Source of the DNA: Perkinsus olseni
Taxonomy: Eukaryota
Direction: 5' to 3'
NCBI GenBank assembly: GCA_013115125.1
Contig: JABANN010000009.1
Coordinates: 124,001-170,352, forward strand
Length of the DNA stretch: 46,352 nt
Shown here: positions 670-44,966 of the stretch, one piece after another
Layout: each line of letters begins with the position of its first letter
Position numbering within the stretch: position 1 is the first letter of the stretch
Made by a program: the position numbers and the translations under genes
Notes under the pieces: model-generated
Told to the model about the DNA's origin: nothing
Seen by the model: the letters and a program-made list of their open reading frames with translations, nothing else
The model's database searches: none

Positions 670-1330
670 TTAACACGGCATGACTGTAAAACGTGGACGA
701 ATTGACGGCATATGTTCTCATTGCCGAGCTACCATCGCCTTATCCATATCTATCATGCGTTGGACAACATTGCCACCCAGACTGCTCCCCCAAGCGTCGA
801 TTCAATCGCTTTGAAAGACTCACACGTAGGTATCCACGTGTCTGTTGGGTATCAGGTAGAAGATTACTGGGAACATACTGCCCGACTCGGGCCGCACGAG
901 TACTGTCAACTGCTGAGTCCACTTGGGGCAACACCGCTCGAATGTGCCGTCCATAGCCAAGTGTACCGCCAGCTGGTCTAATAAGCACCGAGTCCGACTC
1001 GGCCAGTCGTACCAGAGCAGGATGCGATTAGGGTCCTCCGACCCTGTGTCCAGTCAGAGGCTTGGTTGGTTCTTACCACCGACTCATACAGGTTTGCAGT
1101 CCTCTGGGATGATCCATCCCGTGTGAAGAAACACTCCTACGCTCCAAGGAGCGAGAGTTGGAAATTCCAACTTGGAATTTGTGTCATTCGGCCCGAAGCT
1201 CGGGCTCATCTGCATGCCCTCATACCAAGACAAGCGGTCAGCGCCACTGCCCTGGTACCAGGAAACCTCGGTCGCAACCTCAGCAGCTTAGGATCAGCGA
1301 CAGTGGCTCTCTCAGAGCCGTTATTGTGCC
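670..1330 (-). mobile_element. Degenerate Mutator-like (MULE) DDE transposase remnant
   Basis: Reading the minus frame through stops gives LDTGSEDPNRILLWYDW...VHLAMDGTFERCCPKWTQQLTVLV...MFPVIFYLIPNRHVDTYV*VF...MIDMDKAMVA. This matches the MULE pattern DxGxxDxxRIL..MDGTF..P..QL..FP..Y..TY..F..D(F)EKA (MDGTF at 954-940). Multiple in-frame stops. Confidence 0.8.
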
Positions 1331-2872
1331 GCTAATATTGCTGATTAATATATCGGTGTTACGATCTCCATCCGCCAGGGCGGGCAGTAGAACTCATTGC
1401 GTCGCTACACCCAAGGCATCACCTCTCGTTCGACGTCTTACGAGGGGCCGCATTTGAGGGTATTCGCTTGTATCCATCAAAAGTATCACTGACCGCCTAC
1501 CCCAAACCGAGGGGCACGTGGGCTTTGAGCCCTCCACACCATTCAGGAGCTGAACCGAGGCAGCATATGCACCGCCTATCAGGTCCTTCCCATGACGATT
1601 TCCTACCGCGAATGGCAAACGGAAAATAGCGGAGGTCGCGCTCATTGAGTGAGGCTCAGCATAACTGCCCGATGTATTCCGAAGTTCGGAATCCGAACCC
1701 GTTGGCACGGAATGCACTGATGGAAGATAAAGGAAGCATGAATGAAGCATAAATGAAGTAAATGCATCGGGATCTCCCGCGTTCAGCAAAGTTATTCTGA
1801 AACTCAAAATCGATTTTAGAATCGCTCTGTACACGTAAAATGTGGTTCTCGAACCGATTCTGAGTTTCAGAATCGGCTTATTGAACGACCCCCCACTACT
1901 ACTTATTTTTACTGGCTCCTCTCTCTCGAACAGCGGCAGTCGTACTATCTCATTGAGCTTCTTTGGGATGGGCATGGTGAAGGTGGTTCTGGCCCACCTA
2001 GGAGCCGCTGTGCAACATCGGGTGAGCAATGACATTGAAACTGAAGCAACACGAATAAGCTATTCGGAATAACCATTATAGGGCTCTGAGCTTCTCCGAC
2101 TTAATATTAAAGATTCGAATCGCTTCGAAACGCAATGTAATTGCCAGGAAATGGAAACTGTCAACCCAAGAACAGGAGAGAAAGAAGGCAGCACATGATC
2201 CCGATGGCGAGTTGATTTCTCTCACGATCGCTGCTATTGGTAAGACAAGGCAGTTGTCGCGGTCAACAATACCCGACGAATATCACTCATAATCGATGAC
2301 CAGGGAGATGGGTCGCCATGCTAAGCGCAACTGAATAGAATCTAGTGCTCTACTGGTGCTGTCAGATACACTGAGTCTCAAATTACGACTGATAGAGCGA
2401 TAGAATACACCAAATTGCTTCTGTAGATGTCACCGTCCGGGTTCGATCCCGGCATTGGGCGTTTTAAGACCATTATTGTATCTGTTATTGCAACTTGGTG
2501 TCTACACTGGCTCTTACTTATGAGGGAATCAGAGTCATGTCTCCGGCTGAAGCCCTGAGTCTTCATGAGCTGAAACTACGCTTTTCCCCTACAAAGCTGC
2601 TGACAAGTTGACGGACTACATTGAATGGTCAATCTGTAATGTGGGGTGTTTCCTAACCACTATCGGCCCAATAGTATCGGGAGAAAGCCGCGACCTTATT
2701 TCCGACATATTTTCTTCAGGAGTCGCCTCTGGAACCACCGTGAAATAGCACATGGACTAGCATTTTATGAATCTCCGCAGTGTCGGGTCAGTTGAAGTGC
2801 ATGAGCGCCTGCCGTCAGCAGTTATCGTCAGGAATCCATCACTCTTCAGCAGTTTCTCATTTTTCATCCGAA

Positions 2873-41838: not shown

Positions 41839-44465
41839 ATGCTAGTCTCGCGGCTGCTGTTGTTGTTACCTCAAGCCTTCTGGGCGGCAGTGGATGATGG
41901 TGATTTCCTGCCTGACTACGACTGCAGAGGCTGGCCCAACGGACGTCAACCGTCATCAGTTCTAGGTGACGCAGCGAGCGGGCTGTGATCGTCACTCAAC
42001 CAGAAAACAGCACGTTGATGGGCGACTTTCCGACGTGTTGTCAAGAACCGCTGGAAAAGCGGCCTCTACTATTTAGTCGCGTCAAAACGAGTTCTGATGG
42101 GTTAGGCTTCACCATTCTGATTTTAGTCGGGACCATGGACCGAGAGACAAGATTACTAATGAGGCACTAGGGCACGTCTTTGAGCGAAAATTTTTTGGGA
42201 GAACTTCGGTCAGGTATCGATTGGGACTCATGGCGACAGGGAATCCACCGAATGGAAGAAGACTGGCTCGACGGAAGTCTCGAGGTGTGGCTGCCATGAT
42301 GCTTCCGCTATCCCCCATATTTCATCCTATGGGGATTATCTTATTACAAGTTGCAGGTTCTGAGCACCATCTTCGCCTCTGAAGACACTTTCAATCTTGC
42401 CAGTGCTGAGTGCCCTCTGGGTACACTAACGGCTGTGCTCATAGAGATGGGCGTGTGCTTCCAACGAGATTTCATAGACCAACAGAGGCGTGATGCTCAT
42501 CGAGCTCACCTCGTGCAGGGCTGTTACAAGTGATTAGACTACCTCAAGCGCCCTACATTCCACCGCCGTCTGCTCCATACCGCTATCCTTCGATCGTTGT
42601 ACGGTGACAGGCTCACAATTGATCACTATTGACCTGAGATATTCGCTCATCGGCAGCAGCCTGGCTCAAGTTCTCTCTTGACCAGGTGGTCCGATGGTGC
42701 TTCTCAGGGATAATTGGAACCGCTTCCTATCCTTGGTCTCCCAGTTCCGCGGCTCTCATGCTTCGCTCCGAGTTTTCCTGGGTATAGTACCACTCCAGCA
42801 GCGTAGCCTTCTGGTCGCAGTCTTCACCAGGTACTTATTGGCCCATTTTCCCTCTCCTGAACTTCAAATCTTACACCGACCCCATCAACTCCTTCGTGGG
42901 CGACGTGGACCTCGACTGTGAAGATCCTGCCAGCAACTACACAATAGACTGGTCGCATGCCTCCGAGCTCGGACACTTGGAGAAGCCCCCTCGTCAGGCC
43001 GGAGCTTCGCCGACGGTTTGAAATAGAAGAGAAAGACTGGCTCTTCGTATCGAGAGAATTGACGCATAGCCAAGTATAGCTCTCCTCAGCTGCACCGCTC
43101 CTCGAGTTCTATTGCTTGCAAGGCTCTGACTGCGACAGACTCGGACAAACTCTTCCCGGAGTGTCCAATGGGCTACACCGCTGTCAGCGCCGCGAAGATT
43201 CTCGTGTGTGCAGGTATCCTTAAAGTTCGGAACTCATCGCTATTCCGAGCCGGATTCTTCAGGTGTCGAGCCTGTTTGCTTCGACAAGCATGCCGAAAGG
43301 ATCGAACGACTCTTATTCACCCATCCGCCCCACGTTATCTCAGCAAGTGCGCTCGACCGTTCCCTTCTCTTCATGCAAGGATCCTTGTCGAGGTTCGTGG
43401 AGGCTGCCGAGCATGCTACACCACGTCCGATGGGCTACAGCAAGACATCCCTTTCAGCTCGATTTCTCGAGAACAATGCTCGTAAATGGGCCGCTTTTCT
43501 TCACACTAGAAAGCCTATCGGATGACACGTCAATCAGTGAAAAAGACGTCCTTGCGGCTCTCTGGCGCATTCGCTCTAGCTCCTCACGGATCGTCGTGGT
43601 CACTATGGTCTACGGCATCCGATTCAACCAATACATAGACAGATTCATCCGCCGCGCTAAGGCAGTCGGTGTTGAGCACTTGCTCGTTTTCGCTCTAGAC
43701 GAGGAGGCCTACGTATTGTGTCGTGCCGCCGGTACCTCTTTGTGCATCAGAGGGACGCCGAGTATCATCAACAAGTTCACGTTGCCGCTCGTTCTGCTGC
43801 GTGCCGGGTTGGATGTTTTATGGGTGGACTTTGATGTTTTCCTATTCCGAAACCCCCTGCCACACTTGTCGAAGTACTCCGATCACTTCGATCTCCTGAT
43901 TTCGGATTCGTTCTCCACTCGTTGCATCTGTAATGGTGTTGTTTTCTTCCGTTCAATGCCCGCAGTACAGGAGTGGTTACTGGCGTTAGTACAGTGGATG
44001 TATGAGCATCCCTACGAACATGACCAGAAGGCCGTGTCTGCTTTCCTTCACGCCGGCGAGATGGTGGCCTCTGAAGACAGCCTCCCCGTGGGGCGCGACT
44101 TCCATCAAGTGCCCATCCCTCGGTGGGGCTATCTTGATGGAGCAACACAATTCGTCACCGCCAAGCATGTTGAAGATACAGGATGGACTGGCGATCCCGA
44201 CGATATCGTCTTCCTTCACTTCCTTCATGGTGACTCCGATGCTGCGTCTGGCGTCAGTCCAGCGGAGTCTCGAGGCGATGAGATCGTGTACCGTGATCTA
44301 ATGTCTATTTTTTATGGTGCTGCAGATGAAACGCTCTACGATACCCCTGGCCTCCCACATACTGTCAATAATACTATACGAGATGCCTTATATGAGAGTT
44401 TCTGGGAAAGTCGGCCTCGGTGGCGGCCCGTTTGCACTGGTGCTGTCCCTCATGAAGAGCTCTGA
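41839..44465 (+). CDS. Secreted nucleotide-diphospho-sugar transferase (GT77-like) with a long N-terminal region
   Basis: Signal-peptide-like MLVSRLLLLLPQAFWAA. The C-terminal ORF has LLVFALD, K..LL..GLDVLWVDFDVFLFRNP (DxD), ICNGVVFF and HDQ. Linkage of the upstream exons is inferred. Confidence 0.72.
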
Positions 44466-44966
44466 TACGGAGAATTGCTATTGCGTTCGGAGTCTTCTAG
44501 GATTGAGAGCCTTATCATCGTCTCTGTGTGAAGCTCAGATGCCTGCGAATGTGGTTTACTGCTTGCTCATTCGCTATAGGTTACCTATGATACTCGAACT
44601 TCGAGTCTCGAATTCGATCACCTGTCTAGGTGGAGAACTCTAGTCTAACGATCCGTCTCCACCGACATCAACGCGAAGCCACTTTCATGCGGCTTGGTCG
44701 AGTGGCTCTATGCCGGAAAGACGGTGAATAGTTCTACCTCATCACTCGTTGAGGCAAAGAGACCTTTTCCTCTTCTACAAACACTTTTTGTTTCGTCCAG
44801 ACAGGTATGGAACAGCCTCGATAGCGAGGTACAGTATTCAATCATTGAATTTCAATGCCTCATGAGGTTTCGCTACTATGAACACAGGGTCGCCATGGTA
44901 CAACGGCACCAACAGCATATGGGAGCACGAGAGAACTTTTGGTCGCCTTCTTTGTCTAGGACACCA

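Follow-up and report, generated by a model that had tools for sequence, protein, structure and literature searches.

Excision footprints of cut-and-paste DNA transposons are normally rare, messy and seen only by genome comparison. For the hAT element Ac/Ds, one report describes yeast footprints with microhomology at 88–89% and palindrome arms of up to 20 nt, and 28 footprint types among 128 Candida albicans revertants, with a P (palindromic) sequence of at most 3 nt (PMC5873905). For Hermes, the reported target pattern is nTnnnnAn (PMC10368747; PMC2803484). Natural excisions were compared genome-wide between Asian and African rice, where 94 were found over superfamilies, only 8 of them “perfect” and most carrying either a deletion of about 18 bp or some 13 bp of filler, recent hAT transpositions numbering only 5 and 4 in the two species (PMC4423477). 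Here the analysis concerns a 46,352-nt stretch of Perkinsus olseni DNA (assembly GCA_013115125.1, contig JABANN010000009.1, positions 124,001 to 170,352 of the forward strand; hereafter the window), in which a palindromic 22-nt scar recurs at a density of approximately one per 1.3 kb, with about 36 in 46 kb. Perkinsus is a parasite of molluscs (oysters). The scars are probably fossils of excision by a cut-and-paste DNA transposon of hAT type (Ac/hobo/Hermes-like).

Each scar replaces an 8-nt site, t1–t8, with the unit t1..t7, t8', t7'..t2', t1', t2..t8 (primes denoting complementary bases), which can be written as three blocks: t1–t7, the reverse complement of t1–t8, and t2–t8. A sequence-only reading of the window had described a 21-mer, X7-N-rc(X7)-N-last5(X7), with a 1+7+1+5 geometry comprising a 5-bp direct repeat and two free bases. 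The constancy of the unit was upheld, whereas its length, its 5-bp repeat and its free bases were not: the first spacer base is the complement of the base adjoining the 21-mer on its 3' side, the second matches t2 (base 2 of X7) in 7/8 of that reading's plus-strand sites, and the scar is a 22-mer with 14 constrained bases, not 12. The generalised model was scanned at site lengths (L) of 4–12 against 50 dinucleotide-preserving shuffles of the window. At L=8, 10 exact scars were observed against 0.00 in the shuffles, 23 with at most one mismatch against 0.04, and 35 with at most two against 0.20, this being the sole peak. Over the whole window, the same odd-palindrome model (one central base) gave counts at chance level for L=4–6, at or near zero for L=7 and zero for L=9–12; an even-palindrome model lacking the one-base offset gave no match at L=8, and L=5 was at chance in both models.

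The 11 exact 21-mers of the sequence-only reading are all present, as are its one-mismatch copies at 4714 and 15240 and the copy truncated at the start of the window; its list was incomplete, exact sites at 1677, 17243, 27057, 31283 and 44836 having been missed. The excess over shuffled sequence that it expected holds within the window, a mechanical scan for the 21-mer giving 15 exact matches on the plus strand and 11 on the minus strand (shuffles 0.00), many of which are one site seen from either strand. An excess at an arm of k=7 and a suffix of j=5 was likewise found, but not as a single sharp peak: counts were 30 for k6j6, 26 for k7j5, 13 for k8j4 and 5 for k9j3 (each at most 0.2 in shuffles), which form a ridge at k+j=12, a single structure visible at several settings. 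Palindromes centred on one base with arms of at least 7 nt numbered 44 in the window against 3.2 expected, with little excess of even palindromes; the odd palindromes were often paired with their centres exactly 7 nt apart, and such a pair defines the 22-nt structure. Six odd palindromes of this arm length, at 4965, 13775, 18820, 30852, 31236 and 34123, are unexplained, chance being 3.2.

After removal of two candidates (8019 and 24873), the stereotyped set comprises 33 sites, plus one window-edge copy; together with two long scars described below, the 33 form a 35-site set. Thirteen further sites with three mismatches were left uncounted for want of a chance expectation at that level of mismatch. 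The stereotyped scars are listed below; rows carry no strand assignment and targets are inferred from the scars.

1..19 (full span -2..19): stereotyped scar at the window edge; 1–4 = t4–t7, 5 = t8', 6–11 inverted arm, 12 = t1', 13–19 = t2–t8
879..900: 22-nt scar, two mismatches, target approximately nGCCCGAG
988..1009: 22-nt scar, one mismatch, target CCGAGTCG
1157..1178: 22-nt scar, exact, target GTTGGAAT
1677..1698: 22-nt scar, exact, target TTCCGAAC
2052..2073: 22-nt scar, one mismatch, target CGAATAAC
2660..2681: 22-nt scar, one mismatch, target CTATCGGG
4176..4197: 22-nt scar, one mismatch, target GCCCGCAC
4714..4735: 22-nt scar, one mismatch, target GTCGAGAG; paralogue lacks 14 nt
5490..5511: 22-nt scar, two mismatches
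8068..8089: 22-nt scar, one substitution in the first arm, target ATACTGAC
14313..14334: 22-nt scar, one substitution in the first arm, target TTCAGCAT; paralogue near 19467 lacks 14 nt
15240..15261: 22-nt scar, one mismatch, target GTTATAGA; paralogue lacks 14 nt
17243..17264: 22-nt scar, exact, target GGCGGATT
17782..17803: 22-nt scar, exact, target CGTGGCTT; paralogue near 12880 lacks 14 nt
17819..17840: 22-nt scar, two mismatches
24860..24881: 22-nt scar, exact, target TTCTAGAC
26058..26079: 22-nt scar, exact, target GTCACCGC; adjoins the 26080 scar
26080..26101: 22-nt scar, one mismatch (t8)
26384..26405: 22-nt scar, one mismatch, target CAAAAGAT
26712..26733: 22-nt scar, one mismatch, target CTCTGTTC
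27057..27078: 22-nt scar, exact, target CACACGAC
29396..29417: 22-nt scar, one mismatch, target GTTTAGGC; last 16 nt within an RNA-like contig of run X9
29651..29672: 22-nt scar, one substitution in the first arm
31283..31304: 22-nt scar, exact, target TGTGGAGG; within RNA-supported intron 31153–32537
32429..32450: 22-nt scar, two mismatches; within RNA-supported intron 31153–32537
33186..33207: 22-nt scar, one substitution in the first arm; within RNA-supported intron 33101–33409
33544..33565: 22-nt scar, one mismatch, at 33565
33927..33948: 22-nt scar, exact, target CATAAGAA; last base shared with the 33948 scar
33948..33969: 22-nt scar, one mismatch (t8); directly downstream of tRNA-Ser
39948..39969: 22-nt scar, two mismatches
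41075..41096: 22-nt scar, two mismatches
44592..44613: 22-nt scar, one mismatch (t8)
44836..44857: 22-nt scar, exact, target ATTCAATG

One or two mismatches are carried by 23 of the 33 stereotyped copies and are scattered across all three arms, as expected of point mutations arising after formation; the scars show a spread of ages. At 33565, run X7, an independent sample, has G, which makes that scar perfect. Two pairs of scars abut (26058 with 26080, and 33927 with 33948) against 0.05 expected. As to the two candidates removed, 8019–8045 is a tandem repeat of the heptamer CTGGCCA whose self-complementary core mimics the pattern and which fails the complement rule, and 24873 is a shifted reading of the 24860 scar. 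The latter itself has a self-complementary core and is also readable as a 7-nt tandem; its spacers follow the complement rule.

The inferred targets follow the hAT (Hermes) pattern nTnnnnAn. The second base is T in 18/35 and the seventh is A in 20/35, giving a combined 38/70 (54%) against a background of 0.245 (p=8.5e-8). The state before scarring could be read from two diverged tandem duplications in the window, one pairing 10350–14600 with 14950–19750 (about 68% identity over 4.1 kb aligned) and the other pairing 4640–4800 with 5192–5340. For all four stereotyped scars that lie in alignable duplicates (4714, 14313, 15240 and 17782), the paralogue lacks exactly 14 nt, so that the scars are 14-nt insertions into an 8-nt site and are younger than the duplications. 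The following sites show the unscarred form.

5266..5273: unscarred paralogous site CTCGAGAG, a 7/8 match to the target predicted for the 4714 scar
10634..10641: unscarred paralogous site GTGAAAGA, counterpart of the 15240 scar

In addition to the stereotyped form, two longer scars of related structure were found.

3951..4008: long non-stereotyped scar; CTTCCAA+A, a 3-nt left inverted copy, filler, inverted right flank, G+TTCCAAT
17953..17994: long non-stereotyped scar; TAGTAGA+A, TCT, templated filler CGGTAG, a 17-nt inverted right flank, A+AGTAGAT

In both, the two 8-bp copies are kept and both edge bases are complemented. The inverted right-flank copy of the first is at least 12 nt long (26 nt at 85%), with its 8-bp copies 42 nt apart, and in the second the copies are 26 nt apart and a paralogue near 13043 lacks 34 nt (42 minus 8). 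When spacings of 0–80 were scanned, 14 such two-copy structures were obtained against 0.5 per shuffle, with no shuffle match at spacing 6. Short footprints, with an inverted insert of 0–5 nt, were observed 0–2 times against 0–0.6 expected, and only the full 6-nt insert was in excess.

These observations share with hAT footprints the retained 8-bp duplication, the odd palindromes centred on a complement and the nTnnnnAn preference, and the hairpin-opening hAT excision that the sequence-only reading had offered as one of its two explanations is supported by the restriction to L=8, the one-base centres and the target pattern. In hAT transposition, as known from Hermes biochemistry, the first nick falls one base inside the flank. 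An inserting element would duplicate its 8-bp target t1–t8; on excision, the transposase would nick one base into either flank and seal the flanks as hairpins, the left one reading t1–t7, t8', t7'...t1' and the right one t8'...t2', t1', t2–t8. If host enzymes opened these hairpins well away from the tip, long 3' overhangs would result, and because both flanks carry the identical 8-mer the overhangs would be complementary over its inverted copy. The left 3' overhang t8'...t1' could then anneal to the right 3' overhang, t1...t8 on the other strand, with flaps trimmed and gaps filled, and the same product, 22 nt with a net gain of 14 nt, would be expected whatever the position of the hairpin nick. 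The fixed length, for which the sequence-only reading could name no described process, would thus follow from hAT chemistry combined with annealing of overhangs that carry the inverted 8-mer, and the suggestion of an unrecognised excision or repair system is unsupported, the kind of footprint being known. The spectrum in the window points to hairpin opening far from the tip followed by microhomology-driven joining; that the scars arose by this specific hairpin-opening and annealing route is a proposition that we favour by a little.

Several points weigh against a hAT origin. All of the evidence comes from one 46-kb window. No hAT domain was found in the 18 open reading frames (ORFs) scanned for a transposase, the window held no resident element with a perfect 8-bp duplication and 11/14 terminal inverted-repeat matches, and no element-occupied allele was present among the indels listed for divergent-sample contigs over 15001–35000. 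No report of hAT in Perkinsus was found in the literature, and published descriptions back only the consequence of the one-base nick offset, the offset itself being in part general background. The abutting pairs are not predicted by independent events; local re-insertion beside the donor site is a possible cause. Finally, the spectrum is unlike every experimentally described hAT spectrum, because short-P footprints are not in excess.

With relaxed element criteria, 8 candidates were obtained against 0–3 in five shuffles. The best of these, 4381–5229, is 849 nt long with perfect 12-nt terminal inverted repeats and flanks GATTCGAG / GATTTGAG, and its right end plus flank is duplicated at 4653–4748; it is an unvalidated candidate for a resident, non-autonomous transposon. 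Replacements in run X7 at 18529–18687, 22700–22745 and 33264–33345 were considered as empty or occupied alleles, and none had scar structure. In the X7 contig spanning 26002–26717, a stretch with four scars, 50 gap letters occur. The inverted and direct repeats at the ends of Amoebophrya introners were also considered and are a different thing. A literature search on Perkinsus end-joining genes gave nothing relevant. In the papers found, the only elements reported from Perkinsus are Dada and Merlin-related ones (Merlin: PMC8101967).

An origin in another superfamily that makes 8-bp duplications and flank hairpins (MULE or Merlin-like), and not in hAT proper, is unlikely. Muta1, a MULE, forms hairpins on flanking DNA and makes duplications of 8 or 9 bp, a mixture at odds with the zero count at L=9 in the window (L=10, relevant to MULE duplications of 9–10 bp, likewise gave zero), and more than 90% of its excisions in yeast were precise (PMC5499845). 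Merlin also makes 8–9 bp duplications, and P. marinus has two preserved Merlin-related ORFs, whereas hAT has gone unreported from Perkinsus in the literature found; however, the authors located neither ends nor duplications for the Perkinsus Merlin copies (PMC8101967). Both the nTnnnnAn preference and an odd palindrome centred on a complement are reported for hAT (PMC5873905, PMC10368747, PMC2803484).

The second explanation offered by the sequence-only reading was a template-switch end-joining product. In such a transposon-independent error, a 3' end would snap back, copy about 8 nt and realign, by template switching or polymerase-theta-type end joining. We regard this as very improbable. It is in keeping with the lack of a visible element in the window, with the stereotyped products and with the filler of the 17953 scar, whose templated flank copy CGGTAG is typical of template-switch and polymerase-theta pathways. 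However, snap-back gives no reason for a length of exactly 8 nt when counts at L=7 and L=9 are zero or close to it, gives no grounds to expect T at t2 and A at t7, and does not explain the direct 8-mers and complemented outer bases of the two long scars, with 26 and 42 nt between the copies; the exclusive length and the target motif are thus left unaccounted for.

A sequencing, library or assembly artefact is scarcely credible: although runs X1–X6 may be the source of the window, in which case their agreement is not independent, a separate assembly of run X1 is identical over 17405–34014 (16.6 kb) and covers 15/35 sites (14 stereotyped and one long), sites are present in independent reads, sample X7 covering 33565 with the scar-perfecting base, an RNA-like contig takes in part of the 29396 scar, mismatches to the model occur in those 23 of 33 copies, and scars are found in just one of two paralogues.

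With regard to genes, none of the 35 sites overlaps the 3,975 nt for which coding is backed by RNA or Pfam evidence, against 3.3 expected under uniform placement (P about 0.04), and 3/35 lie within RNA-supported introns. Within this annotated part, the result fits, weakly, the earlier claim that all sites lie outside coding sequence and avoid exons; the further statement that they occupy introns and dead genes is plausible, on weak evidence.

A DNMT2-like ORF at 38916–39893 shares 94% identity with a protein named as Perkinsus olseni, which places the window in a Perkinsus species; the window further contains serine carboxypeptidase, LRAT-like, nucleotide-sugar transferase and tRNA-Ser genes along with two UbiA-like copies. 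The latter are tandem UbiA-prenyltransferase-like sequences at 5608–6697 and 7079–8008 with 77% identity, of which the first is possibly a pseudogene because it is split over two frames. The duplication pairing 10350–14600 with 14950–19750 includes LRAT-like and serine-carboxypeptidase sequence, and its 10350–14600 copy seems to be decaying, since it lacks 191 nt including carboxypeptidase coding sequence. A 108-nt stretch at 16364–16471 is present in one paralogue only; its ends form inverted repeats around GTGTTCAAT, and a target duplication is not evident. It is either a small mobile element or the result of a deletion in the other paralogue.

The tRNA-Ser(GCT) gene lies at 33972–34055 on the minus strand, and two overlapping scars sit directly downstream of it and take in its T-run. 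A 17- to 55-fold depth spike at 33972–34055 is due to tRNA-Ser gene copies, and this high-copy interval, considered as a small transposon beside the double scar, is the tRNA-Ser gene. Over 15001–35000, runs X11 and X9 behave as RNA, with contigs that skip 13 intervals with CT..AC ends, as for GT..AG introns of minus-strand genes; run X9 is labelled as another organism, yet its match of at least 99% is what a sample from an infected host would give. At 22675–22758, the arms of a 10-nt inverted repeat (GGAAAAAACG / CGTTTTTTCC) enclose a 4-nt loop, a 13-nt direct repeat, 37 nt apart, comes after it, and in run X7 8 other letters replace 22700–22745.

Although the kind of scar is known as a hAT-type footprint, the stereotyped full-length product and its density are unusual and no description of them was found in the literature; in particular, outside supplementary footprint tables, none was found of such a scar in Perkinsus, or of its occurrence genome-wide in other organisms. 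The near absence of short-junction products suggests that double-strand-break repair in the Perkinsus lineage is dominated by annealing. More tentatively, Perkinsus genomes could possibly contain tens of thousands of hAT-type scars (approximately one per 1–2 kb of non-coding DNA), nearly all of 22 nt and formed via far-from-tip opening and overhang annealing instead of tip opening and classical end joining. If so, the scars would preserve past cut-and-paste events across the genome in datable form, with few or no resident copies left, a record that could reflect very mobile elements, local hopping (as in the abutting pairs) or host-driven purging of insertions, and they would make a major contribution, so far undescribed, to the 14-nt indels of Perkinsus and to its palindromes able to form cruciforms. 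The scars in the window are self-identifying because each encodes its own target site, so that with about 36 of them target choice, local re-insertion, repair outcome and age can be read from a single genome. Scoring individual scars as present or absent could provide strain markers for an economically important mollusc parasite, and annotators should expect 14-nt palindromic insertions in Perkinsus introns and pseudogenes.

Short-range template-switch mutations create or perfect short inverted repeats in place, but unlike the window scars they have no fixed length, duplicated target or target motif. Transib/RAG-type elements make 5-bp duplications, a length at which the window counts did not exceed chance in either palindrome model. 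V(D)J coding joints formed by RAG and Artemis resemble the scars in that a transposase-like hairpin forms on the retained DNA, is opened off centre and leaves a palindromic addition at the joint. Since RAG nicks at the boundary, however, V(D)J palindromes are even, unlike those of the window; their P tracts are short and, without a target duplication, the ends are not built to be complementary. The V(D)J parallel is remarked on in PMC2803484. The rice excisions are natural events, as the window scars would be, and were recognised via comparative genomics, whereas the window holds about 36 scars of one superfamily type, nearly all of the same form. With Hermes and hobo (hAT, Ac family), the scars share the 8-bp duplication and nTnnnnAn, the window targets being deduced from scars and not from resident insertions. 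The likeness to Ac/Ds in plants, S. cerevisiae and Candida albicans lies in the retention of both 8-bp copies, the P-nucleotide palindromes from flank hairpins, a junction centre that is the complement of element-adjoining bases, and frequent microhomology. The Ac/Ds data come from reporter revertants and the window scars are natural fossils; Ac/Ds spectra are heterogeneous, with inverted inserts of 0–5 nt typical and with 0–3 nt of P sequence and small deletions predominating, whereas in the window the complete inverted 8-mer dominates, the spectrum consisting of one dominant annealed product and rare long-palindrome products with templated filler.

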